This document shows positions 90 to 48,327 of a stretch of 48,442 nt of DNA, piece by piece. Position 1 is the stretch's first letter. Every line of letters begins with the position of its first letter. The translations under genes and the position numbers were made by a program. The notes under the pieces are model-generated. The model was not told where the DNA came from. It saw nothing but the letters and a program-made list of their open reading frames with translations, and did not search any database. Origin of the DNA: an uncultured beta proteobacterium (GTDB lineage Bacteria; Pseudomonadota; Gammaproteobacteria; Burkholderiales; Burkholderiaceae_C); contig CAIYWD010000260.1 in NCBI GenBank assembly GCA_903929815.1, positions 1 through 48,442 on the forward strand. The letters are read 5' to 3'.

Positions 90-556
90 GCCGATATGCT
101 GCTAAAAATGAAAAGCAGCAAGTATCAGTAAGTTCACCGGGTGAACATTTGCCTGAGTCAACCATCAGCGTTGAAACGCGGGTAAAGTGTTACCCCTATT
201 TGAACCATGCCTGCGATGCCATTAGTAACGCGCTGTTTGATTGAGAAGCCAAGCCCATTTCGATCATTTTTGATTCTTTTTATAGATGCAAATTTACATG
301 TCTGACATTCATCGCAACTTTCGGCAAATTTGCCGGCGGTTGTCTCATCGGATAATCAGCCAGATATTCGCAATAACCGCAGGAAAGAAAGTGGGCGATA
401 CCTCGTGTTTACCCCAATAAATCAAAGACATATATCGACCACACGCGACCAGGCATGGACGGTAATGGTTGAACACGTTACCGCTTGCCCGCCCATACGA
501 CCACCCAATCATCGTAAAAGCCAAGGCCATCCATTTGGCAAATATGGACTGAATTG

Positions 557-3500
557 ATGACAGCATCAGAACAACACATCGAACAAGCGCTGATCGAAAA
601 ACTGGGCGACTTGAAATACACCTTTCGCCCCGACATTCGCGACCGCGCCGCGCTGGAAGCAAACTTCCGCCAGCACTTCGAGACATTGAACCGCGTTAAA
701 TTGACTGACAGTGAGTTCCAGCGCCTACTGGAATCCATCATTTCCCCTGATGTATTCACCGCCGCACGCAGCTTGCGCAGCATCGACAGCTTCACTCGCG
801 ACGACGGCACGCCGCTCAATTACACCTTGGTCAATACCCGGGACTGGTGCAAAAACAGCTTCGAGGCCATCAACCAACTGCGCATCAACACAGACAACAG
901 CCACCATCGTTACGATGTCATTCTCCTTATCAACGGCGTGCCTGTCGTGCAAATCGAGCTGAAGACTCTCGGCATCAATCCGCGCAGGGCCATGGAGCAG
1001 ATCGTTGATTACAAAAACGACCCCGGCAACGGCTACACCCGCACGCTCCTTTGCTTCATCCAGCTCTTCATCGTCAGCAATCAGGGCAGCACTTACTACT
1101 TCGCCAACAACAACGCCCGCCACTTCGCCTTCAACGCCGAGGAGCGTTTCCTGCCCATTTATCAGTTCGCAGATGAGGCCAACAAAAAGATCGCCCACCT
1201 CGACGACTTCGCGGAAAGCTTCCTCGTCAAATGCACCCTGGGCCAGATGATCAGCCGCTACATGGTGCTCATCGCCAGCGAACAGAAGCTGATGATGATG
1301 CGCCCGTATCAGATCTATGCCGCCCGGGCCATCGTGGACTGTATCCACCAGAACTGCGGCAACGGCTACATCTGGCACACCACTGGCAGTGGCAAAACGC
1401 TGACATCCTTCAAGGCATCCACGCTGCTAAAGGACAACCCCGACATCGAGAAATGTCTCTTCGTCGTGGACCGCAAAGACCTGGACCGGCAGACGCGCGA
1501 GGAGTTCAACAAATTCCAGGAAGGCTGCGTGGAGAAAAACACCAACACCGGAATCCTCGTCAGTCGTCTCCTTTCCGACGACTACGCCGACAAGGTCATC
1601 GTGACTACCATTCAGAAGCTCGGCCTTGCGCTGGATGAAAACAGCAAGCGCAACAAGCAGCAAAGGATGGATGGAAAATCCACTTACAAAGAGCAGTTGG
1701 AACCGCTTCAGGGCAAACGCATCGTCTTCATCTTCGACGAGTGCCACCGCTCACAGTTCGGCGAGAACCACAAGGCCATCAAGGAATTCTTCCCGCAGGC
1801 CCAGCTCTTTGGCTTCACCGGCACCCCCATCTTTGAGGTGAACTCGACTTCCAAGCAGTTTGAAGGGGAGGTGGGGCAATTCAAGACCACGGTGGACATT
1901 TTCCAAAAGCAGCTCCACGCCTACACCATCACCCACGCCATCGAGGACGCAAACGTCCTGCGCTTCCATGTGGACTACTTCAAGCCCGAGGGAAAAGGCG
2001 CTCCCAAGCCCGGCGAGAGCCTCGCCAAACGCGCCATTGTTGACGCCATTCTGGCCAAGCACGATACCGCCACTGGCGGGCGTCGGTTCAATGCACTGCT
2101 TGCCACCACCTCCATCAATGACGCCATCGAATACCACGCCCTTTTCAAGACCCTTCAGGCCGAGAAACAGGCCGCCGACCTTGACTTCCAGCCGCTGAAT
2201 ATCGCTTGCGTCTTCTCCCCGCCCGCCGAGGGCGACAAGGATGTGCAGCAGATTCAGGAAGATCTGCCGCAGGAAAAGGAGGACAACGCCGTCGAGCCTG
2301 AGAAGAAAAAAGAAGCCCTCAAGGCCATCCTCGCCGACTACAACGCGCGCTTTGGCTCCAATCACACGGTGGCTGAGTTCGATCTCTACTATCAGGATGT
2401 GCAAAAGCGCATCAAGGACCAGCAATGGCCCAACGCCGACCTGCCCCATGCGCAGAAAATCGATATCACCATCGTGGTGGACATGCTGCTGACCGGCTTC
2501 GATTCCAAATACCTGAACACGCTTTATGTGGACAAGAACCTCAAGCATCACGGTTTGATCCAGGCCTTCTCCCGCACCAACCGCGTGCTCAATGGCACGA
2601 AGCCCTACGGCAATATCCTCGACTTTCGCCAGCAGCAGGATGCCGTGGATGCCGCCATCGCTCTCTTCTCGGGGGAAAGTTCCGTGCCCAAAGCCCGCGA
2701 AATCTGGCTCGTGGACAAAGCCCCCGTGGTCATCGGAAAGCTGCAATGCGCGGTTCAGAAGCTGGACGCCTTTATGAAATCCCAGGGCCTGGCCTGCGCT
2801 CCGGAAGCCGTGCCCAACCTCAAGGGCGACGACGCCCGCGCCGCCTTCATCAACCATTTCAAGGAAGTGCAGCGGCTCAAGACCCAGCTTGACCAATACA
2901 CTGACCTCTCCGACGACAACGCCGCCACCATCGAGCAAATTCTGCCAAAGGAAAACCTGCTCGGCTTCCGTGGCGCGTACCTGGAGACCGCCCAGCGCCT
3001 CAAAGCCCAGCAGGGCAAAGGCATCCACAAGCCCAGCTCAGATATTGACCAGTTGGATTTTGAGTTCGTTCTGTTTGCTTCCGCCGTCATTGATTACGAC
3101 TACATCATGGGACTCATCGCCCGCTTCACCGAGCAGACACCGGGCAAGCAGAAGATGAGCCGCGAGCAGCTCGTCGGCCTGATTCAGTCCGATGCCAAGT
3201 TCATGGACGAGCGCGAGGACATCAGCGCTTACATTGCCACCCTGAAGGCGGGCGAAGCCCTTAGCGAAGAGACCATCCGCGAGGGCTACCGGCGCTTCAA
3301 AGCCGAGAAACAGTCCCACGAACTCGCCGACCTCGCCAAGGGTCACGGACTCGAAACCCCTGCCCTGCAAGCCTTTGTGGACGGTATCCTCTTGCGCATG
3401 ATTTTTGATGGCGAGCGTTTAAGCGACCTCATGGCCCCGCTGGGCCTGGGCTGGAAGACCCGTGCCCAAAAGGAACTCGCCCTGATGGACGAACTCACCC

Positions 3501-3562
3501 CGCTCCTGCGCCAACGCGCCCAAGGCCGCGACATCTCGGGACTCAGTGCGTATGAGCAATAA
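557..3562 (+). CDS. hsdR: Type I restriction enzyme subunit R
   Basis: ~1000 aa; nuclease motif DVILLINGVPVVQIELK, Walker A HTTGSGKT, DECHRS box, FGFTGTP, MLLTGFD, QAFSRTNR helicase motifs. Confidence 0.97.
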   Translation: MTASEQHIEQALIEKLGDLKYTFRPDIRDRAALEANFRQHFETLNRVKLTDSEFQRLLESIISPDVFTAARSLRSIDSFTRDDGTPLNYTLVNTRDWCKNSFEAINQLRINTDNSHHRYDVILLINGVPVVQIELKTLGINPRRAMEQIVDYKNDPGNGYTRTLLCFIQLFIVSNQGSTYYFANNNARHFAFNAEERFLPIYQFADEANKKIAHLDDFAESFLVKCTLGQMISRYMVLIASEQKLMMMRPYQIYAARAIVDCIHQNCGNGYIWHTTGSGKTLTSFKASTLLKDNPDIEKCLFVVDRKDLDRQTREEFNKFQEGCVEKNTNTGILVSRLLSDDYADKVIVTTIQKLGLALDENSKRNKQQRMDGKSTYKEQLEPLQGKRIVFIFDECHRSQFGENHKAIKEFFPQAQLFGFTGTPIFEVNSTSKQFEGEVGQFKTTVDIFQKQLHAYTITHAIEDANVLRFHVDYFKPEGKGAPKPGESLAKRAIVDAILAKHDTATGGRRFNALLATTSINDAIEYHALFKTLQAEKQAADLDFQPLNIACVFSPPAEGDKDVQQIQEDLPQEKEDNAVEPEKKKEALKAILADYNARFGSNHTVAEFDLYYQDVQKRIKDQQWPNADLPHAQKIDITIVVDMLLTGFDSKYLNTLYVDKNLKHHGLIQAFSRTNRVLNGTKPYGNILDFRQQQDAVDAAIALFSGESSVPKAREIWLVDKAPVVIGKLQCAVQKLDAFMKSQGLACAPEAVPNLKGDDARAAFINHFKEVQRLKTQLDQYTDLSDDNAATIEQILPKENLLGFRGAYLETAQRLKAQQGKGIHKPSSDIDQLDFEFVLFASAVIDYDYIMGLIARFTEQTPGKQKMSREQLVGLIQSDAKFMDEREDISAYIATLKAGEALSEETIREGYRRFKAEKQSHELADLAKGHGLETPALQAFVDGILLRMIFDGERLSDLMAPLGLGWKTRAQKELALMDELTPLLRQRAQGRDISGLSAYEQ

Positions 3563-4565
3563 GCCTGTACCGGACTACGCCCAAGACTTTGCCGAGATGC
3601 TGGGACACATCCAGCAAACGCGGCAGCGCGTTTTTGCGCAGGCCAACACGGCCTTGATCGACCTCTATTGGCGTATTGGGCAAACCCTCAGCCACAAGAT
3701 AGCTCAGAGTGGCTGGGGCAAAGGGGTGGTGACCGAGCTGGCGCACTACATTGCGCAGGCCGACCCCAGCATCAAGGGCTTCAGCGACAAAAACCTGTGG
3801 CGCATGAAACAGTTTTATGAAGCCTACTGCGAGGAAGAAAAACTCTCACCACTGGTGAGAGAATTGCCGTGGTCACATAATCTTGTCATTTTTTCCCGCT
3901 GCAAAACAGCGCAAGAGCGTCAGTTTTACTTGGTCATGGCCGCAAAGGAAAAGCTCACTTTTCGTGAGCTGGACAGGCAAATCAGTTCCAGCTTCTTCGA
4001 GCGAACGACTGTGGCCCCGACAAAACTCTCAACAGTGTTGAGAGAAATTCACCCCAGTATCGGCAAAGCCTTCAAAGACCGCTACGTGCTCGAATTCCTG
4101 GGCCTGCCCGAGCCGCACAGCGAAAACGATCTCAAACGCGCACTGGTGCAGCACATAAAAGCCTTTGTGCTGGAGCTGGGCAAAGACTTCTTGTTTGTCG
4201 GCGAAGAATATCGCCTGCAAGTGGGCAACCAGGACTTTTTCATTGACCTGCTTTTTTACCATCGGGGCCTGTCGGCACTGGTAGCGTTTGAGCTGAAAGT
4301 GGGCCAGTTCAAGCCCGAACACATGGGCCAGCTCAATTTTTATCTGGAAGCGCTAGACCGCGACGTGAAAAAACCGCACGAGAACCCCAGCATCGGTGTG
4401 CTGCTGTGCCGCGACAAGGACGACGAAGTGGTGGAATACGCCCTCTCGCGCAACCTGTCACCCGCACTGGTGGCGCAATACCAATTGCAATTGCCCGACA
4501 AAAAACTGATTGCGGCCAAGTTGCATGAGCTGCTGGCGCTGCACGAAGGGGTGGGCGATGAGTAA
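3552..4565 (+). CDS. DUF1016/YhcG family PD-(D/E)XK nuclease (copy 1)
   Basis: LYWRIG...GWGKGVV, GFSDKNLWRMKQFY, LPWSHN, KDRYVLEFL, FIDLLFYHRGL...FELK, GQLNFY, SIGVLLC; start overlaps the hsdR stop. Confidence 0.92.
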   Translation: MSNKPVPDYAQDFAEMLGHIQQTRQRVFAQANTALIDLYWRIGQTLSHKIAQSGWGKGVVTELAHYIAQADPSIKGFSDKNLWRMKQFYEAYCEEEKLSPLVRELPWSHNLVIFSRCKTAQERQFYLVMAAKEKLTFRELDRQISSSFFERTTVAPTKLSTVLREIHPSIGKAFKDRYVLEFLGLPEPHSENDLKRALVQHIKAFVLELGKDFLFVGEEYRLQVGNQDFFIDLLFYHRGLSALVAFELKVGQFKPEHMGQLNFYLEALDRDVKKPHENPSIGVLLCRDKDDEVVEYALSRNLSPALVAQYQLQLPDKKLIAAKLHELLALHEGVGDE

Positions 4566-5688
4566 GGAGAAAACCAAAGGAGCGACACCACAGAACACAG
4601 CCCGCCTTTCCCGTGGCCGCACCCGTCCCGATGCCATCTTTCCGGTCGCGCCGGCGACCGCGTCGCTGCCACAGAGCTACGCCGCTACGCTGCAGGAAAT
4701 CAAGACCCATCTCCGCAGCGCTCGCATTCGGGCCGTGCTGGCGGCCAATCCCATCGTCATCGAAGCCTATTGGCACACGGGGAACATCATCCTCGCCCGC
4801 CAGCAGGAAGCCGCTTGGGGGGCCAAAGTCATTGATCGCCTTGCCGCTGATCTTCAGGAAGCCTTTCCTGACATGGGTGGCCTGTCTGTGCGTAACCTTC
4901 TGGCGATGAAGATATTTGCCCGCGAGTTCCCTTTTGATCCAATTGCGCAACAAGCTGTTGCGCAATTGCCTTGGGGCCATGTTCTTCAGATCATGCAGCG
5001 CCTCAAAGACCCCGCCTTCCGTGACTTCTACATCCGCCAGTGCCTGGCCGAAGGCTGGAGCCGTAGCATTCTGGAAATGCAAATTCAGAACCAGCTCCAC
5101 CTGCGCTCTGGCAAGGCTCAGAACAACTTTGCACTTACCATGCCGCCAGCCGAGTCCGACATGGCGGCGCAACTGTTCAAAGACCCCTACCTCTTCGACT
5201 TTCTGGGCACCGCCGACCCACGCCGTGAGGCCGAGGTGGAGCAGGCGTTGACCGATCACATCCAAAAGTTTCTGCTGGAGTTGGGCACGGGCTTTGCGTT
5301 TGTGGGGCGGCAGGTTCGTTTGGAAGTAGGCGGGCAAGACTACCCGCTCGACCTCCTTTTCTATCACCTCAAGCTGCGCCGCTACGTCGTCATTGAACTC
5401 AAAGCCCGAGCCTTCACCCCCGGCGACGTGGGCCAGCTCAACCTCTACCTCTCCGCCGTGGACGACCTCCTGCGCCACCCTGACGACCAGTCCACCATCG
5501 GCCTGCTGCTCTGCCGAAAAAAGAACAAGCTCGTCGCCGAGTATGCTTTGCGCGGGCTTGACCAATCCATCGCCGTCGCAGCCTGGCAGACCCAGCTCAC
5601 CGAAACCCTGCCCGACGATTTACGCAGCAGCCTGCCCAGCATCGACGAAATCGAAGCTGAACTGGCCAACGAAACCCCGCCTGTATGA
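4558..5688 (+). CDS. DUF1016/YhcG family PD-(D/E)XK nuclease (copy 2, divergent paralog)
   Basis: AYWHTG...AWGAKVI, LPWGH, KDPYLFDFL, DLLFYHLKLRRYVVIELK, GQLNLY, TIGLLLC; ATG 4558 overlaps the previous stop. Confidence 0.92.
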   Translation: MSKEKTKGATPQNTARLSRGRTRPDAIFPVAPATASLPQSYAATLQEIKTHLRSARIRAVLAANPIVIEAYWHTGNIILARQQEAAWGAKVIDRLAADLQEAFPDMGGLSVRNLLAMKIFAREFPFDPIAQQAVAQLPWGHVLQIMQRLKDPAFRDFYIRQCLAEGWSRSILEMQIQNQLHLRSGKAQNNFALTMPPAESDMAAQLFKDPYLFDFLGTADPRREAEVEQALTDHIQKFLLELGTGFAFVGRQVRLEVGGQDYPLDLLFYHLKLRRYVVIELKARAFTPGDVGQLNLYLSAVDDLLRHPDDQSTIGLLLCRKKNKLVAEYALRGLDQSIAVAAWQTQLTETLPDDLRSSLPSIDEIEAELANETPPV

Positions 5689-7086
5689 GCCATAAGCCAA
5701 ATTTAACGACCCCGAAGCCCGACGGCAAACCCGCGCTGGTTCCCAAGCTGCGCTTTCCGGAGTTTCGGAATGCGGAGGGGTGGGACACCACGCCCGGCGA
5801 TGAGTTGTTCGAGCAGATTAACAACCGCCAAGCACCCGCTGGGCTTCCGATTCTCGCCATCACACAAGAGCACGGAGCCATTCCACGCGACCTAATCGAC
5901 TATCACGTCTCGGTCACTGATAAGAGCGTCGAAACCTATAAGGAGGTTCTACCCGGAGATTTAATTATCAGCCTTAGATCCTTCCAAGGGGGTATCGAAT
6001 ATTCAGATTACCACGGCATTTGCAGTCAAGCCTATGTCATTCTTCGCAAAAGACCCGAGCTGTCTGACTTGTTCTTCAAGCAACACTTCAAGTCGCACAG
6101 CTTTAGGTATGCACCACTTATTGTTGCTCCAAAAAATTATAGCTAATTGTCAAAAAATCAGTCAGTTACGATGTGTTATTGGAGTAATAATAAGTGGGAC
6201 ATCCCTTATTCAGCAGTTAACGAAAAATCTCGAAGGTCTTCGAGATGGAAAAATGGTCAGTTACAAACAGTTTTCCGAACTGCTGCTGCTGAATCCCTCT
6301 CCACTCGAACAACAAAAAATCGCCGAGTGCCTGGGCTCCGTCGATGAGCTGATTGCGGCCCAAGCCCGAAAACTGGACGCGCTCAAGACACATAAAAAGG
6401 GGCTAATGCAGCAGCTTTTTCCCCGCGAAGGCGAAACCCAACCCCGCCTCCGTTTCCCCGAATTCCAAAATGCAGGGAAGTGGGAGGCAAGTCCGCTAAT
6501 TGGATTGAGCAGCGTAGGGCTACGTAACGGAGTTTTCAATGATCCGAAGAAAGTCGGCACCGGTTTCAAGCTGATCAACGTCTCGGACATGTATATCGAC
6601 ACAACGATAGATGAAGGGCGCTTGTCACTACTCGAACTCGCACTTTCCGACTTCGAAGCGAACCAAGTAATACACGGAGACATCTTTTTCACTCGCTCGT
6701 CTTTGGTTAAGTCCGGCATCGCTGTATCGAACATTTATCTCGGAAGCTCGAGTGATGTGACTTTTGATGGCCATCTAATCAGGTTCAGGACCAACACCAG
6801 CAAGGTGATCCCGTTGTTTACTCACTATCTTTTCAAGACAGCACCAATACGTGCGCAGCTCATCGCCCGAGGAAAGACAGCAACGATGACCACAATCGGC
6901 CAAGCAGACGTTTCGAGCGTAATACTGTTCTATCCTGAGCGGAAAGAACAACAACGCATAGCCGACTGCCTCACCACCCTCGACGACCTCATCGCCGCGC
7001 AAACCCAAAAGCTCGAAGCCCTCAAAACCCACAAGAAAGGGCTGATGCAACAGCTTTTTCCATCTCCTCAGGAGGTTGAAACATGA
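5685..7086 (+). pseudogene. hsdS: Type I RM specificity subunit, interrupted by MITE-A
   Basis: Repeated conserved blocks PKLRFPEF/PRLRFPEF and EQQKIAECL..KTHKKGLMQQLFP/EQQRIADCL..KTHKKGLMQQLFP. Removing 6106-6208 (103 bp) restores a single 432-aa frame (...HFKSHSFIQQLTKNLEG...). Confidence 0.93.
6106..6205. mobile_element. MITE family A, 100 bp, TTA target duplication
   Basis: 27-bp imperfect TIRs (GGTATGCACCACTTATTGTTGCTCCAA / GGGATGTCCCACTTATTATTACTCCAA); TTA at 6103-6105 and 6206-6208; near-identical copy at 48072-48171. Confidence 0.95.
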
Positions 7087-8093
7087 GCAACCTTATCCTC
7101 TACACCACCGAAGACGGCAGGAGCCAAATCAAGCTCCGCACGGAGAATCAGACCGTCTGGCTGACTCAGTTGGAAATGGCTGAACTCTTCGATGCCACGA
7201 AGCAGAACATCTCGCTGCACCTGAAGAACCTTTTCGAGGACGGGGAGCTGGACCCGGCGGCAACTGTCAAGGAATCCTTGACAGTTCAAGCCGAGGGCGA
7301 CCGCGACGTGCAGCGCCAGGTCATGCTCTACAACCTGGAGGCCATTCTGGCCGTGGGCTACCGTGTGCGCTCGTCCCGTGGCGTACAGTTCCGCCGCTGG
7401 GCATCCTCTGTTTTGAAAGAATATCTGCTCAAGGGCTTCGCCATGGACGATGAGCGGCTGAAGAACCCCGATGGCCGCCCCGATCACTTCGACGAGATGC
7501 TGGAGCGCATCCGGGACATCCGAGCTTCCGAGAAGCGCTTCTACCAGAAGGTGCGCGACCTGTTTGCCTTGAGCAGCGACTATGACAAGACGGACCAAGC
7601 CACGCAGGTCTTCTTCGCCACAGTGCAGAACATCCTTCTCTACGCCGTCACCCAAAAAACTGCCGCTGAACTGATTAGCGCACGTGCCAACCACAACGAT
7701 CCGAATTTTGGTCTCTTGCACTGGAAGGGAGCGAAAGTGCGCAAAGAAGATATCCTGACCGCCAAGAACTACCTGACCGAGGACGAGATTGATACCCTCA
7801 ACCGCCTAGTGGTGATTTTCCTGGAAACGGCGGAACTACGGGCCAAGAGTAAGCAGGAAACCCGCATGAGTTTCTGGAAGGGCAACGTGGACCAGATCAT
7901 CACCTCTAACGGCTTCCCGCTGCTCGCCCATGCGGGCTCGATCAGTCATGGGCAAATGGAGAGCAAGACGAACGCCCTCTATCTCGACTACGACCAGCGC
8001 CGCAAACAACAAGAAGTGCTGCAAGCAGACCAGCAGGACGAGGCCGAGCTCAAAGCCATCGAAAACAAAATCAAACGACGCCCGAAGACATGA
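7083..8093 (+). CDS. rhuM: RhuM family (virulence RhuM / putative DNA-binding) protein
   Basis: TVWLTQLEMAELF, NISLHLKNLFEDGEL, YNLEAILAVGYRVRSSRGVQFRRWA, KGFAMDDERLK, ERIRDIRASEKRFYQKV; ATGA overlaps at both ends. Confidence 0.9.
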   Translation: MSNLILYTTEDGRSQIKLRTENQTVWLTQLEMAELFDATKQNISLHLKNLFEDGELDPAATVKESLTVQAEGDRDVQRQVMLYNLEAILAVGYRVRSSRGVQFRRWASSVLKEYLLKGFAMDDERLKNPDGRPDHFDEMLERIRDIRASEKRFYQKVRDLFALSSDYDKTDQATQVFFATVQNILLYAVTQKTAAELISARANHNDPNFGLLHWKGAKVRKEDILTAKNYLTEDEIDTLNRLVVIFLETAELRAKSKQETRMSFWKGNVDQIITSNGFPLLAHAGSISHGQMESKTNALYLDYDQRRKQQEVLQADQQDEAELKAIENKIKRRPKT

Positions 8094-9718
8094 CCGACCA
8101 AAACCAAACCCAACTGGGCAAAACCCTCTGGAACATCGCCGACCAATTGCGTGGCGCGATGGACGCAGACGATTTCCGCGACTACATGCTGTCGTTCCTG
8201 TTCCTGCGCTACCTCTCGGACAACTACGTGGCGGCGGTCCAGCGCGAATTGGGCACGGACTATCCAAAGCTAGAAGCTGATGGCCGCCGCGTGCCTCTCG
8301 CCCTTTGGTATGCGAACAACCCCGATGATGTCGCCGAGTTTGAAAAACAGATGCGGCGCAAGGTGCATTACGTCATCAAGCCGCAATACCTCTGGACAAG
8401 CATCGCCAACATGGCCCGGCGGCAAGACGGGGAACTGCTGGGCACCCTGCAAGCGGGCTTCAAATACATCGAGAACGACTCCTTTCAAAGCACCTTCCAA
8501 GGGCTGTTCTCAGAGATTGATCTGGCCTCCCATAAGCTGGGCAAGACCTATGCCGACCGTAACGCAAAGCTCTGCACCATCCTCCAAAAGCTCGCAGAGG
8601 GCTTGGCCGAATTCTCCACCGACATTGATGCGCTTGGCGATGCCTACGAATACCTGATCGGCCAGTTCGCCGCCGGTTCCGGCAAGAAGGCGGGCGAGTT
8701 CTACACCCCGCAGCAGATTTCCGACATTCTCTCGGCCATCGTCACGCTCGACAGCCAGGAACCCGCCACCGGCAAGAAGCAACGACTAGAGAAAGTCCTC
8801 GACTTTGCCTGCGGCTCTGGCTCCCTGCTCCTCAACGTGCGAAAGCGCATGGGAGCACAACGGGATGGGAGCATCGGCAAAATTTATGGGCAGGAAAAGA
8901 ACATCACCACCTACAACCTCGCCCGCATGAACATGCTGCTGCATGGGGTGAAGGATTCGGAGTTCGAGATTTACCACGGCGACACCCTGACCAACGATTG
9001 GGATCTGCTGCGCGAACTCAACCCCGCCAGGAAGCCCTACTTCGACGCCATCGTCGCCAATCCGCCCTTCAGCTACCGGTGGGACCCCACCGACGCGATG
9101 GGCGATGATGTGCGTTTCAAAAACCACGGCCTTGCCCCCAAATCCGCCGCCGATTTTGCCTTCCTCCTGCACGGCTTCCACTTCCTGAAAGACGAAGGCG
9201 TGATGGCCATCATCCTGCCCCACGGCGTGCTCTTTCGTGGCGGCGCGGAGGAGCGCATCCGCACCAAACTGCTCAAGGACGGTCATATCGACACCGTCAT
9301 CGGCCTGCCCGCCAATCTGTTTTACTCCACGGGCATTCCGGTCTGCATCCTCGTGCTCAAGAAGTGCAAGAAACCGGACAACGTGCTCTTCATTAACGCC
9401 AGCGGTCCGGAAAACTTCGAGAAAGGCAAACGCCAGAACCGCCTCAAAGATGAGCACATCACCAAGATCATCGACACCTACCAATTCAGGAAGGAAGAAG
9501 AGCGCTATTCCAGGCGAGTTTCAATGGAGCGAATTGCCGAGGAAGGATTCAACCTGAATATCTCTCGCTACATCAGCACGGCGGTCACTGAGGAGGAGAT
9601 TGTTCTGGAGGATACCCATGCCGAACTGGTCAGAATTGAGGCGGACATCCGAAAGGCCACGCTCAAACACAATGAATTCCTGAAAGAACTGGGCAAGCCG
9701 TTGTTGCCGGTTGAATGA
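8090..9718 (+). CDS. hsdM: Type I RM m6A methyltransferase subunit M
   Basis: LWNIADQLRG, GDAYEYLIGQFA, GEFYTP, motif I LDFACGSGSLL, motif IV ANPPF, ILPHGVLFRGG. Confidence 0.97.
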   Translation: MTDQNQTQLGKTLWNIADQLRGAMDADDFRDYMLSFLFLRYLSDNYVAAVQRELGTDYPKLEADGRRVPLALWYANNPDDVAEFEKQMRRKVHYVIKPQYLWTSIANMARRQDGELLGTLQAGFKYIENDSFQSTFQGLFSEIDLASHKLGKTYADRNAKLCTILQKLAEGLAEFSTDIDALGDAYEYLIGQFAAGSGKKAGEFYTPQQISDILSAIVTLDSQEPATGKKQRLEKVLDFACGSGSLLLNVRKRMGAQRDGSIGKIYGQEKNITTYNLARMNMLLHGVKDSEFEIYHGDTLTNDWDLLRELNPARKPYFDAIVANPPFSYRWDPTDAMGDDVRFKNHGLAPKSAADFAFLLHGFHFLKDEGVMAIILPHGVLFRGGAEERIRTKLLKDGHIDTVIGLPANLFYSTGIPVCILVLKKCKKPDNVLFINASGPENFEKGKRQNRLKDEHITKIIDTYQFRKEEERYSRRVSMERIAEEGFNLNISRYISTAVTEEEIVLEDTHAELVRIEADIRKATLKHNEFLKELGKPLLPVE

Positions 9719-15716: not shown

Positions 15717-15765
15717 GGTGTTTTTCCGAGGGTAAATACGGATGAGAATGCTTGATGCAAGCAAG

Positions 15766-15926
15766 GGATAGGGTTAGAAATAAGTTTTGCATTTGGATTG
15801 TCAGATTTGGATGCACTGCGTTGTTACAAATCGCTTATGTGGCTGGGCGCAGACTGCGCGATTTGCGTCTAGCATTGCATCTTTAACTCTGACGGCCAAA
15901 TGCAAAACTTATTGTTGACCATATCA
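15766..15926. mobile_element. MITE family B, left end degenerate, without inner element
   Basis: Right arm AACTCTGACGGCCAAATGCAAAACTTATTGTTGACCATATC and interior match the copy at 34792-35072 minus its nested insert. Confidence 0.85.
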
Positions 15927-15977
15927 TTAGGGGGATTTGGATGTCACAAGCCCACCACATCACTTTGAATCGCACCC
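15927..15977. mobile_element. Right end of MITE family D
   Basis: TTAGGGGGATTTGGATGTC...CCACATCACTTTGAATCGCACCC matches the right end of 39271-39465. Confidence 0.85.
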
Positions 15978-15994
15978 GACCTTATCCAAAGTTA

Positions 15995-16054: not shown

Positions 16055-16138
16055 GGCTTCCCACTTAATTCGGGACAGAGATGGAGTCGCAAGCCGATTC
16101 AGATGACTCCATCTCTGTCTCGCCTTAAGCGGGAAGCC
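16055..16138. mobile_element. Palindromic element family F (copy 1, 84 bp)
   Basis: GGCTTCCCACTTAA...TTAAGCGGGAAGCC termini plus inner stem GACAGAGATGGAGTC/GACTCCATCTCTGTC; no TSD seen. Confidence 0.7.
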
Positions 16139-17180: not shown

Positions 17181-17215
17181 GTGTCATAGTATATGGCTGC
17201 GATGCGCCTCTTGAC

Positions 17216-17340
17216 GGCTTCCCACTTATAGACTTTCAGATAAATAACTTCCATTTTGAACGAAAAAATATCTTTAAGATCAGCAGGTTACTTGAGCATA
17301 CTTGGAAACTATTTATCTGAAAGTCTATAAGTGGGAAGCC
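17216..17340. mobile_element. MITE family F (copy 2, 125 bp)
   Basis: Perfect 31-bp TIR GGCTTCCCACTTATAGACTTTCAGATAAATA; no TSD seen. Confidence 0.85.
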
Positions 17341-17656
17341 GCGGTGGGATTAGCACTGAAATTCTCGATCAGTTTAATCGTACGGCGATTACGTCTGGGG
17401 TCACCCAGATCAAGAGTTTCAAATTCAATGGCAGCCCAGCTCATATGTTTCCTCAATATTTGTTGCTATGAAAGACGGAGCATAACATATCAGGAAACTT
17501 GTGTATAACGATATGCGCCTTACGAGGGTGACCTGCTCTTGTGGAATGGTTTTTTTTGAAGTCTTTGGTATTTTGTGGCGCAAGGTGTCTGCGTTACACA
17601 CGATTTAGCCACAGGAATATTGTTAAAATAAACCAATCCGTTAATGAAATAAAACC

Positions 17657-19225
17657 ATGATACAAAAAAATAAATATGGTCAATATTTTACGCCAAACAT
17701 GGTGGCTGATTTCATGATTAATTTGTCTGATATTCCTGCCACCGCAAAAATTTTAGAACCTTCATGCGGTGAAGGTATTTTTTTGGAATTATTGAAACAC
17801 AAAGGATTTCATAATTTGACAGCTTACGAAATAGACGATTCATTGGCAAATAAATATCCCTTTGTCAAACATGAAAGTTTCGTCACGGCTAACATTAAAG
17901 ATAATTTTGATTTAATTATTGGAAATCCGCCATATATTCGCTGGAAAAATATGCAGAATGAATTAAAAAACGAATTAAAACATCACTATTTATGGAATAA
18001 ATATTTTAATTCATTGTGTGACTATTCGTATATTTTTATATTAAAAGCCATTGAATTATTGAATGAGAATGGCCAATTGATATTTATATGCCCTGAATAC
18101 TGGTTAAATACAACCCATTCGGTAACATTGCGAGACTACATGGTTCAAAACGGTTATTTTGAAAAAATATACCATTTCAATGAAACCCCAATCTTTGAAA
18201 AAGTCACTGTTTCCATTATTATTTTCAAATACATCAAATCAAAACACAAAACCGCAACTATTGATATCTCCAAGCATAATATGAATCAGAAACTAACAAT
18301 AAAAACATTGGAAATATTGCGACAGAAAATACAGACTGAATCCATCAAGCATTTTACAATTTCTCAATTTCAAACCAATGAACGTTGGCTTTTACATACC
18401 GATGAAGTAAAAAGCGAAATAAAAACCACAGAAGCCAGGTGCAAAAAGATACATCAAAACCAGTCACTTTTTGATAATAGTAGCCAGATCGACTATCACA
18501 CGATTGGAGATTTCTGTGATATAGGAAATGGACTGGTGAGCGGTCTTGACAAAGCGTTTCAGCTTCATGAACGCTCTTTGAACAGTGAGGAGGAAAAATC
18601 TGTTTTGGATGTTGTCAAATCGAAAGACATTAAACCTTATTATTATCAAGGCATCACAAAATACCTGTATATTTCTGACAATTACCATGAAGAAGATATA
18701 AAACGCATCTATCCAAATTTTTACAGTCATTTACAACCCTATAAAATAGAACTTGAAAAACGTTATCAATATAACAAAAAAATCCCTTACTGGCAATGGG
18801 TATTCCCACGCAGTTTCAGTTTATTCAGTCGTAACGAAAAACGAATTTTTGTGCCATGCAAGGAACGAATTTCAAATAAAAATTATTTTCGTTTTGCATT
18901 GGCAAACAGTGGAATTTACCCAACACAAGATGTCACAGCTATTTTAAAAAAGACATCAACAAAAGAAAGCATTGAGTATATTTTATGTTGGTTAAATCAT
19001 CACAGAACTTTTGATTGGCTCAAAGTCAACGGAATCATCAAAGGGAATATAGTTGAATTTTCAGAGAAACCAATAACGAGCATTCCATTTCGGGCAATAG
19101 ATTGGGACAATGAAGAGGAGACGATGATCCACCATCAAATTACAGAAATTTGCCAGTCTCTTGTGTGTATGAAAAATGACGATTTAATCTCTAAAATAAA
19201 TGAGCTGATTGACAAACTTTTTTAA
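17657..19225 (+). CDS. Type II m6A DNA methyltransferase, M.HincII-like (gamma class)
   Basis: YGQYFTP, LEPSCGEGIF, IIGNPPY, TaqI-like C-terminal region; strongly AT-rich; followed by a HincII-like endonuclease fragment. Confidence 0.9.
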   Translation: MIQKNKYGQYFTPNMVADFMINLSDIPATAKILEPSCGEGIFLELLKHKGFHNLTAYEIDDSLANKYPFVKHESFVTANIKDNFDLIIGNPPYIRWKNMQNELKNELKHHYLWNKYFNSLCDYSYIFILKAIELLNENGQLIFICPEYWLNTTHSVTLRDYMVQNGYFEKIYHFNETPIFEKVTVSIIIFKYIKSKHKTATIDISKHNMNQKLTIKTLEILRQKIQTESIKHFTISQFQTNERWLLHTDEVKSEIKTTEARCKKIHQNQSLFDNSSQIDYHTIGDFCDIGNGLVSGLDKAFQLHERSLNSEEEKSVLDVVKSKDIKPYYYQGITKYLYISDNYHEEDIKRIYPNFYSHLQPYKIELEKRYQYNKKIPYWQWVFPRSFSLFSRNEKRIFVPCKERISNKNYFRFALANSGIYPTQDVTAILKKTSTKESIEYILCWLNHHRTFDWLKVNGIIKGNIVEFSEKPITSIPFRAIDWDNEEETMIHHQITEICQSLVCMKNDDLISKINELIDKLF

Positions 19226-19342: not shown

Positions 19343-19466
19343 GTAACCGTTTAGGATATGGTCAACAATAAGTTGTGCATTTGGCCGTCGGAGTTGGGAT
19401 GCAATGCTAGGCGCAAATCCGACAAGCCAAATGCACAACTTATTCTTGACCATATCCTTAGACCCC
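19343..19466. mobile_element. MITE family C terminal repeat split by a MITE-B insertion
   Basis: GTAACCGT-TTA-[B]-TTA-GACCCC reconstitutes GTAACCGTTTAGACCCC seen at 34879 and 47935. Confidence 0.85.
19354..19457. mobile_element. MITE family B, short 104-bp form, TTA duplication
   Basis: GGATATGGTCAACAATAAGTTGTGCATTTGG ... CCAAATGCACAACTTATTCTTGACCATATCC; TTA at 19351-19353 and 19458-19460. Confidence 0.92.
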
Positions 19467-22413: not shown

Positions 22414-22541
22414 GGATATGGCAACCATCAGTTTTCCACCTCATAATTTCAAAAAACATAGCAAACTATGCAGTACCAGAGCGGGTTATAGCCGAATTTT
22501 GTACAATTTTTGACGTAGAAAACTTTCCGTTAAGCGCTTAT
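22414..22541. repeat. Family E repeat (copy 1) preceded by a 12-bp stub of the MITE-B end
   Basis: 22424-22541 is a near-identical reverse complement of 24299-24420; TTA-GGATATGGCAAC at 22411-22425 resembles the B terminus. Confidence 0.85.
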
Positions 22542-22595
22542 GAAGTCCTGTAGCCAGGTACAGGCATAGCTGCCACCTACTGAGTAACCCCCGAT

Positions 22596-24287: not shown

Positions 24288-24298
24288 GACGATACCTT

Positions 24299-24427
24299 AT
24301 AAGCGCTTAACGGAAAGTTTTCTACGTCAAAAATTGTACGAAATTCGGCTCTAACCCGCTCTGGTATTGCATAGTTTGCTATGTTTTTTGAAATTATGAG
24401 GTAGGCAACTTATGGTGAATCACTTAC
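24299..24427. repeat. Family E repeat (copy 2) in the fliP-fliQ spacer
   Basis: Inverted copy of 22424-22541; its ends ATAAGCGCTTAACGGAAAGTTTTCTACGTCA / GTAAGTGATTCACCATAAGTTGCCTACCTCA are degenerate inverted repeats; no clear TSD. Confidence 0.85.
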
Positions 24428-34778: not shown

Positions 34779-34791
34779 GGCTTCCCACTTA
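34779..34791. repeat. Terminal 13 bp of family F, interrupted by MITE-B
   Basis: GGCTTCCCACTTA, identical to the tips at 16055 and 17216; its TTA is the left flank of B. Confidence 0.7.
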
Positions 34792-35072
34792 GGATATGGT
34801 CAACAATAAGTTTTGCATTTGGCCGTCAGAGTTGGGCGCACTGCGTCGTTACAAATCGCTTAGGTGGCTGGGCCACACGTAACCGTTTAGACCCCCCCTC
34901 TGTTTTGAGGCCGTGGCAGGACAGCGTCCCAAAAAAATCAATCACTTGGAGAACACTGCGCAAAAAATCGCAGGGGGGGTCTAAACGGTTACGGCCACAC
35001 TGCTCGATTTGCACCTGGCATTGCATCTTTAACTCTGACGACCAAATGCAAAACTTATTGTTGACCATATCC
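34792..35072. mobile_element. MITE family B containing a nested MITE-C
   Basis: ~42-bp TIRs GGATATGGTCAACAATAAGTTTTGCATTTGG(C/T)CGTCAGAGTT; flanks TTA / TTG; 159 bp once the insert and one TSD are removed. Confidence 0.92.
34879..34992. mobile_element. MITE family C, 114 bp, 8-bp TSD (IS66-like ends)
   Basis: Perfect 21-bp TIR GTAACCGTTTAGACCCCCCCT; GGCCACAC duplicated at 34871-34878 and 34993-35000; GTAA termini with an 8-bp TSD are typical of IS66. Confidence 0.95.
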
Positions 35073-35329
35073 TTGGTATTTATTGGGGCTGATGCCATGA
35101 CATTTTGAAGTGCTTTTTGGGATGGTCAGACAAAGTTTCAGGGTGTCTAAACGATGACGCAAAAATAGGTTTTTTTACACATAAGTTATTGATTTATAAA
35201 AAAGTATGGCATGGGTTCGCTGAATGTTTATAAAATGGAAAATTCTTGATTTTACATTTACAACCCATTGATTTTAAACATATTACTTAAAATAAACGAG
35301 CCAAGGGTTGATATTTGTTACCAATGGAC

Positions 35330-39270: not shown

Positions 39271-39465
39271 GGGTGCGTTTCAAAGTGATGTGGTGCAATA
39301 CAAAAACCAAATCCCCCCTAACCCCCCTTTTTCAAAGGGGGGGACAAATACAGCGCTGTGCCCAAATAGGCTAACTGTTCTCATTCCCCCCTTTGAAAAA
39401 AGGGGGGGTTAGGGGGGATTTGGATGTCGCACCCAAGCAAAGCCACATCACTTTGAAACGCACCC
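39271..39465. mobile_element. MITE family D, 195 bp, 9-bp TSD
   Basis: Perfect 23-bp TIR GGGTGCGTTTCAAAGTGATGTGG; GCCTTGCTG at 39262-39270 and 39466-39474; inner inverted pair of CCCCCCTTT..AAAGGGGGG hairpins (39307-39423). Confidence 0.95.
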
Positions 39466-39520
39466 GCCTTGCTGAATTCCTAACTGAAGTGCATCCGTTT
39501 GACGGACAATCACCAGCCTT

Positions 39521-48020: not shown

Positions 48021-48327
48021 TCGGAATGGTCCAACGTGTTTGTCGATGCCAAGATGACCACGGCGTTGTTAGGTATGCACCACTTATTGTTGCTCCAAAA
48101 AATCATGGCTAATTGTCAAAAAATCAGTCAGTTACGATGTGTTATTGGAGTAATAATAAGTGGGACATCCCTTAGATCGGCTCACACATCATTGCCACAT
48201 CGTGGAGACAGGCAACGAGTCGTATCGGTTTGCACAAAGTTCAATGGCGGCCAAGTCACGCATCAAGGGGCGCGAACAATTGCGTAAGGATAGCGCCAAG
48301 GCAGCACCGATGCCCGAGCCGATCTGA
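48021..48327 (+). pseudogene. istB: IS21-family IstB ATPase C-terminal remnant, interrupted by MITE-A
   Basis: Removing 48072-48174 gives [36 protein letters not shown]..., the IstB C-terminal signature. Confidence 0.9.
48072..48171. mobile_element. MITE family A, second copy, TTA duplication
   Basis: Differs from 6106-6205 at two positions that I can see (AATTATAG vs AATCATGG); TTA at 48069-48071 and 48172-48174. Confidence 0.95.

Follow-up and report, generated by a model that had tools for sequence, protein, structure and literature searches.

The hsdS gene of a type I restriction-modification locus in an uncultured betaproteobacterium is split by a 100-bp MITE that shifts the reading frame within its first recognition domain (TRD1), and we conclude that this is probably a recent, population-wide OFF allele that has switched the type I system off. 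The insertion and its target-site duplication, the frameshift, the ancestral layout of the gene, the intact hsdR and hsdM genes, and the recurrence of the insertion junctions in several sequencing runs are all directly observed. That the system is off, a possibility already raised in a preliminary description of this DNA, is the most likely outcome, suggested by the frameshift, by the weak start signals of the 3' half, and by a parallel with the NgoAV system. The MITE frameshift would deprive HsdM and HsdR of their specificity subunit. The most likely reading is that of an ordinary event, in which a MITE burst silenced one more defence gene, here in an allele shared by samples of a freshwater population.

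The MITE insertion and the ancestral hsdS gene

In the 48,442-nt stretch of DNA analysed here (the window), the element occupies positions 6106-6205 of the forward strand. It has imperfect 27-bp terminal inverted repeats (22/27 identical), folds into a long hairpin, has a GC content of 35% against 50-52% in the two parts of hsdS, and is flanked by a TTA duplication at 6103-6105 and 6206-6208. As first described, the MITE plus one TTA (103 bp) frameshifts TRD1, and precise removal of these 103 bp restores a 432-aa ORF with two TRDs and no internal stop. The pre-insertion junction reads HSF|IQQ, and the intact relative P0124 (427 aa), which belongs to the same 90% cluster as the hsdS 5' fragment, reads HSFIQQLTK across the site. 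The same TRD1-TRD2 pair is found in the full-length relatives P0006 (432 aa), P0007, and P0013. The HsdS layout of two TRDs and two helices is present in the pre-insertion gene and in relatives, and is absent from the current allele.

The 5' part of hsdS (5685-6105, forward strand), delimited from ORFs and relatives, comprises the N-terminal conserved motif and the first ~110 residues of TRD1. Its ORF runs into the MITE and ends at a TAA at 6144-6146, giving a product of 153 aa with no complete TRD and no dimerisation helix. The 3' part (6209-7086, same strand) is undamaged according to ORFs, Pfam, and a structural model, and comprises the tail of TRD1, a central dimerisation helix (6301-6417, model residues 65-103), a complete TRD2 with a predicted TRD fold, and a distal dimerisation helix (6940-7056, model residues 278-316). 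The regions of the two helices are identical at 31 of 44 positions. The central region of the gene shows no tandem tetrapeptide repeat. A prediction of the TRD2 motif from its likeness to EcoKI TRD2 was rejected, the match (E 1e-6) being too weak.

The frame of the 3' half is open from an ATG at 6034, upstream of the MITE, to 7086, which corresponds to 350 aa. Further in-frame starts are ATG 6109 (325 aa), ATG 6253 (277 aa), and a native internal ATG at 6406, from which a 226-aa ORF (6406-7086, forward strand), picked out from the ORFs and its SD score, covers a conserved motif, TRD2, and one helix.

The rest of the type I locus

The gene order is hsdR, two DUF1016 genes, hsdS, rhuM, and hsdM, all on the forward strand. 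The preliminary description was right to consider hsdR (554-3562, 1002 aa) and hsdM (8090-9718, 542 aa) intact, as both retain their catalytic motifs. HsdR is EcoR124-like, with Pfam domains HSDR_N, ResIII, and EcoR124_C, a best PDB match to EcoR124 HsdR (E 1e-117), and all of the nuclease, Walker A, and DECH motifs; HsdM, identified by Pfam, has motifs I and IV (DFACGSG, NPPF), and EcoR124II is its second-best PDB match. With EcoR124 subunits among the closest solved relatives, we describe the locus as no more than type IC-like. Loss of HsdS ends methylation and restriction together and should not be toxic, so that hsdR and hsdM may persist intact for a while.

The two DUF1016/YhcG PDDEXK genes (3552-4565 and 4558-5688) and the RhuM-family gene (7083-8093), all assigned by Pfam, lie inside the hsd run, where the nearest relatives carry other cargo; the stop of the second DUF1016 gene overlaps the hsdS ATG (ATGA). 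Elsewhere in the window, a 522-aa ORF with an NPPY motif (17657-19225) looks like another adenine methyltransferase.

The genome has other type I loci, with two intact-looking hsdS ORFs of 385 and 418 aa accompanied by hsdM and hsdR (contigs C131 and C14), and a further hsdM (C209). Its other HsdM proteins are only 28-37% identical to the one studied here, which makes the lending of subunits between loci unlikely, and these other loci are likely unaffected by the MITE insertion.

A recent insertion from a multi-copy MITE family

The hsdS element has inverted repeats and a target-site duplication, and belongs to a family of short, multi-copy sequences without a transposase of their own, as MITEs do. 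We found ten near-full copies in the genome (84-100% identical, hsdS copy included), plus two lone ends, and eight of the ten carry a perfect TTA or TAA duplication; given a multi-copy family with such duplications, the insertion in hsdS is not due to chance. One of the copies lies in the window as well (48072-48171, forward strand, 98% identical, with a TTA duplication) and overlaps no ORF of at least 100 aa with an ATG start. A scan of genome contigs for the MITE ends returned 17 stretches, all of them in one other betaproteobacterial genome.

A copy on another contig (C31, 5570-5669) matches the hsdS copy at 100% identity, indicating that the insertion in hsdS is recent. The C31 copy splits a very long YD-repeat gene (Rhs-like, a label given by eye) into ORFs of ~1121 and ~1056 aa. 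Identical copies in hsdS and in the YD-repeat gene point to a single recent burst that hit at least two genes.

No cognate transposase with matching ends was found in four Pfam families (two matches to PF01609, one to PF13359, none to PF13586 or PF13340, and MITE-like ends at none of them), a result that leaves room for one in unassembled repeats. A DDE_Tnp_4 transposase on contig C28 (10397-11300) was rejected as a partner, its surroundings being unlike the ends of this MITE. Other MITE-like inverted-repeat families occur in the window at 15763-15978, 16055-16138, 17215-17341, 19351-19461, 34783-35076, and 39271-39466, one of which has the ACTTATTGTTG motif in common with the hsdS element. 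The window also contains a 123-bp inverted repeat (22424-22546 / 24294-24416, 93%) around a 1.7-kb segment with TetR-like and fliR-like genes (labelled by eye); the segment has possibly been inverted, or the repeats may be two copies of another element.

Population evidence and sequence variation

We examined eight of 20 listed public runs, which are mostly from freshwater or lakes. The insertion junctions are present in four of the eight, from three studies (X1, X2, and X3 on both sides, X7 on the right side only); in X4, X5, X6, and X11, the pieces listed include none of the MITE-bearing hsdS allele at the site. A second assembly contains a 153-aa product, P0123, with the same MITE-derived tail.

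Over ~6180-7000, the listed pieces of X1, X2, and X3 are identical to the window. Just upstream of the MITE, these runs differ from it by seven linked bases within 42 bp (6028-6069), causing five codon changes and one silent change, and this variant matches P0123. At four of the seven sites the window agrees with its nearest relatives, while at 6028 it stands apart (P115Q, a change that the X1-X3 allele does not have). These differences may reflect recombination over a short patch or clustered mutation; neither the genome nor the best 80 of 119 loci yielded a donor. As the seven differences look like a single event, they say little on selection.

Compared with 80 relatives (the best 80 of 119), the 5' fragment departs at two of 53 near-invariant columns (F93L and P115Q, residues kept in 80/80), and the 3' part at one of 103, by a conservative change from Y to F. 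The 5' departures fit an early decay of the 5' piece, and are too few for a test; the undamaged 3' half is compatible with a recent knockout as well as with a half subunit that works.

Among metagenome loci that carry a related TRD (best 80 of 119), none contains the MITE; 70 of these 80 are intact, five run off the contig end, and five are interrupted after the central helix, and six intact relatives place this TRD second. At the DNA level, hsdS-like sequence was found in one of 40 relatives (from another family) and in none of 24 same-genus genomes, so that this search provided no sister allele.

A contig in X1 and X3 has 376 other letters in place of TRD2 (6491-6946) between similar conserved flanks, and in X1 the read depth drops from 18.8 over the upstream gene to 10.1 over TRD1. 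These observations suggest that the samples also contain a second hsdS allele, one with other TRDs, although it could belong to another organism.

Translation of the interrupted gene and alternative readings

Neither hsdS nor hsdM has an SD match at its native start, and both starts overlap the upstream stop (ATGA), so that the two genes are probably translationally coupled to their upstream neighbours. Ribosomes would thus enter hsdS through ATGA coupling, make the 153-aa fragment, and stop within the MITE, leaving the 3' half without useful translation. A promoter scan of 5500-7200 gave no match on the forward strand, and one on the reverse strand against 1.1 expected. RNA run X11 yielded a single 196-bp piece (5678-5873) and no 3'-half piece among those listed, and is uninformative on expression. 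Relative to the end of the premature stop, the in-frame starts are located 113, 38, 26, and 23 nt upstream, or 106 and 259 nt downstream. Huber et al. report that intergenic gaps of ~20 nt nearly abolish coupling or re-initiation (PMC10666635); it was gaps that they tested, and applying this to long overlaps is an extrapolation. Silencing agrees with the literature on NgoAV, where a frameshift within TRD1 inactivates the system (PMC6789123; bioRxiv 10.64898/2026.01.10.698759), and with the treatment of early hsdS truncations as non-functional in PMC6918075. 

Three ways in which the locus might nevertheless retain a function can be ranked, with use of the internal start at 6406 ahead of reversion, and reversion ahead of a start within the MITE. 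The first of these, which we regard as unlikely, holds that the native ATG 6406 is used, and that a 226-aa, TRD2-only homodimer would redirect HsdM and HsdR to a palindrome of the TRD2 half-site. There is a slim chance that this locus provides the whole population with a natural equivalent of the engineered EcoDXXI C-half, methylating and restricting a new palindromic bipartite motif, in which case the sole role of the MITE would be to remove the full-length subunit. The preliminary description had proposed such a motif from a one-TRD product started in the MITE; that source is not supported, whereas the 6406 start, which it did not name, could provide one.

In known half subunits, a single TRD is accompanied by a single helix, which zips onto a second chain (PMC3874165), and the 226-aa ORF from 6406 is the only one here with this true half-subunit layout. 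If made, it could self-pair, judging from the 31/44 identity of the helix regions. ATG 6406 lies within the conserved KKGLM motif, 3 nt downstream of an SD-like AAGGGG whose score (-6.6 kcal/mol) is above 96% of sampled internal ATGs and above 52 of 55 scored relatives, and 226-aa ORFs starting from the same Met are gene-called elsewhere (P0093, P0103, and P0118). However, the match derives from the Lys-Gly codons of the conserved motif, its score falls to -2.8 once a spacing of at least 5 nt is imposed, and the ATG is the one lying 259 nt past the stop. Moreover, scoring relied on the canonical anti-SD motif rather than on the host's own 16S tail, and the first ATGs of long ORFs barely differ from internal ATGs, making this background a poor yardstick.

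The EcoDXXI C-half (deltaN) is active, but was engineered by deliberate deletion, and EcoR124I delta50, EcoDXXI with Tn5 in the C-terminal TRD, and NgoAV HsdS200 are all N-halves (PMC3874165). The natural half subunits in the cited literature are likewise N-halves (PMC3874165; bioRxiv 10.64898/2026.01.10.698759; PMC6158711; PMC7383803), and we found no natural C-half HsdS in full-text literature searches, which covered few subscription papers. If ATG 6406 were used, the consequences would be broad: the Met of KKGLM being conserved, any TRD1 break in this large HsdS family could change specificity rather than abolish it, and many annotated hsdS pseudogenes would merit re-examination.

In the course of this comparison, we observed a natural 224-aa N-half HsdS of the same TRD family, identical in two assemblies (L058:3382-4056 and L059:5986-6660). 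It has a complete TRD and one helix, its frame being broken immediately behind the central region, and makes a better candidate for a switch to palindromic specificity than the hsdS locus of the window.

Less probable again is a reversible on/off switch, operating by precise excision of the MITE, by loss of a base in its A6 run, or by recombination with another hsdS allele. MITE removal does give a perfect ORF, deletion of a single A from 6131-6136 would join the frames in a 466-aa ORF, two MITE-bearing alleles exist that differ by the seven linked bases, which may be a recombination patch, and X1 and X3 contain the related hsdS piece with another TRD2. Yet neither the empty-site joint (6105 to 6209), for which a search had been suggested at the outset, nor an indel at the A6 run was found in any of the eight runs among the pieces listed, bearing in mind that contigs drop rare variants, so that a rare excision could have escaped detection. 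An exact probe of the empty junction matched no metagenome contig, a weak result given that relatives differ at synonymous sites and that near genomes are possibly absent. Excision by DDE enzymes is rarely precise, and the search of four Pfam families described above returned no cognate transposase. The A6 tract is short, and the 34 extra residues of the fused product would fall in a TRD helix (from a by-eye match of TRD1 with the TRD2 helix, 245-255). The only homopolymer runs before the stop are this A6 and a G5, both in the TRD1 region, with no tract between the TRDs. The earlier suggestion that the insertion is revertible by excision therefore finds no support.

More doubtful still is translation from a start in the MITE (ATG 6109, or TTG 6121/6124), perhaps with re-initiation after 6146, yielding a one-TRD HsdS of 320-325 aa, or of 350 or 277 aa. 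The preliminary description had noted a 325-aa ORF opened by the ATG of the MITE and containing the central region, TRD2, and the distal region. This ORF exists and has that content; its frame, however, is already open from 6034, and it also keeps the last ~30 residues of TRD1, so that with this tail and both conserved helices it is not a half subunit. The 350-, 325-, and 277-aa products each contain TRD2 and both helices. In its favour, gene callers have predicted products of 325 and 277 aa, a weak SD (-3.7) precedes TTG 6121, and the hairpin's left arm would be opened by ribosomes as they translate through it. On the other hand, ATG 6109, 38 nt ahead of the premature stop, lacks an SD match (-0.2 kcal/mol) and is paired in the hairpin (-52.9 kcal/mol, z -5.1, reached by 0 of 200 shuffles). 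Moreover, an ATG at MITE base 4 followed by a stop-free frame is found in nine of the ten copies of this genome and in 13 of 13 full-length copies of the other genome. ATG 6109 and the open frame are thus fixed features of the element itself, and their in-frame match with the hsdS 3' half is due only to orientation and target phase.

An AlphaFold2 monomer model of the 325-aa product (68 sequences, pLDDT 82.8, pTM 0.76) has a MITE-derived N-terminus of low confidence (pLDDT 55-65). Its residues 62-316 superpose as one body on the full-length HsdS 7vs4_C (Z 17.5, 2.5 A over 232 residues), and it matches EcoR124I with an rmsd of 3.1 A over 227 residues. From this superposition, the two helices are predicted to pair within the chain, which would leave a product with one TRD and no free helix; the model was built from aligned full-length subunits, which leaves a dimer with swapped helices conceivable. 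The proposal that a MITE-started, one-TRD HsdS dimerises is accordingly not supported.

Finally, we give almost no credence to an assembly artefact in which a collapsed repeat would mimic the insertion, since despite a 283-contig assembly and unitigs that reach only 25-27 bases into the MITE, below the 31-base bridging rule and as expected where unitigs meet a repeat, the TTA duplication is perfect, the same junctions recur in four runs from three studies, and the second assembly encodes the same MITE-derived tail.

Comparison with known systems

Among comparable systems, known half-HsdS subunits, namely EcoR124I delta50, EcoDXXI Tn5/deltaN, and NgoAV HsdS200 (PMC3874165), as well as the half-S of S. 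aureus (PMC6158711), also belong to type I systems with similar central and distal helices, and EcoDXXI Tn5 (deltaC) provides a precedent for a mobile element that changes specificity (PMC3874165). These subunits keep one complete TRD and one helix, and in the natural ones, which are N-halves, the cut falls behind the central helix. In the present locus it is TRD1 that is destroyed, a product started in the MITE would have two helices, and only the 226-aa ORF matches EcoDXXI deltaN. Phase-variable hsdS genes with repeat tracts also combine an hsdS frameshift with intact hsdR and hsdM, but their tracts lie between the TRDs and lead to TRD1-only products (PMC7383803), whereas the present gene has no such tract and a broken TRD1.

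The nearest natural case of a TRD1 break is the HsdS62 allele of NgoAV in Neisseria gonorrhoeae, a type IC system reported to be inactivated by a frameshift in TRD1, which is common in the population, being carried by 35.3% of isolates (PMC6789123; bioRxiv 10.64898/2026.01.10.698759). It differs in its cause, a one-base insertion with a stop at residue 62, as opposed to a MITE with a stop at 153. The MITE pseudogenes of Anabaena sp. 90 share with the present locus a short, hairpin, multi-copy element within an ORF and the lack of an evident cognate transposase; in that genome, 15 MITEs lie within disrupted ORFs, and 13 RM pseudogenes are counted separately (PMC3542288). The element family is a different one, and in our case it is hsdS that is hit, with a 3' half that is still open. 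MITE-made pseudogenes are already known (PMC3542288), and the hsdS gene described here probably adds an example.
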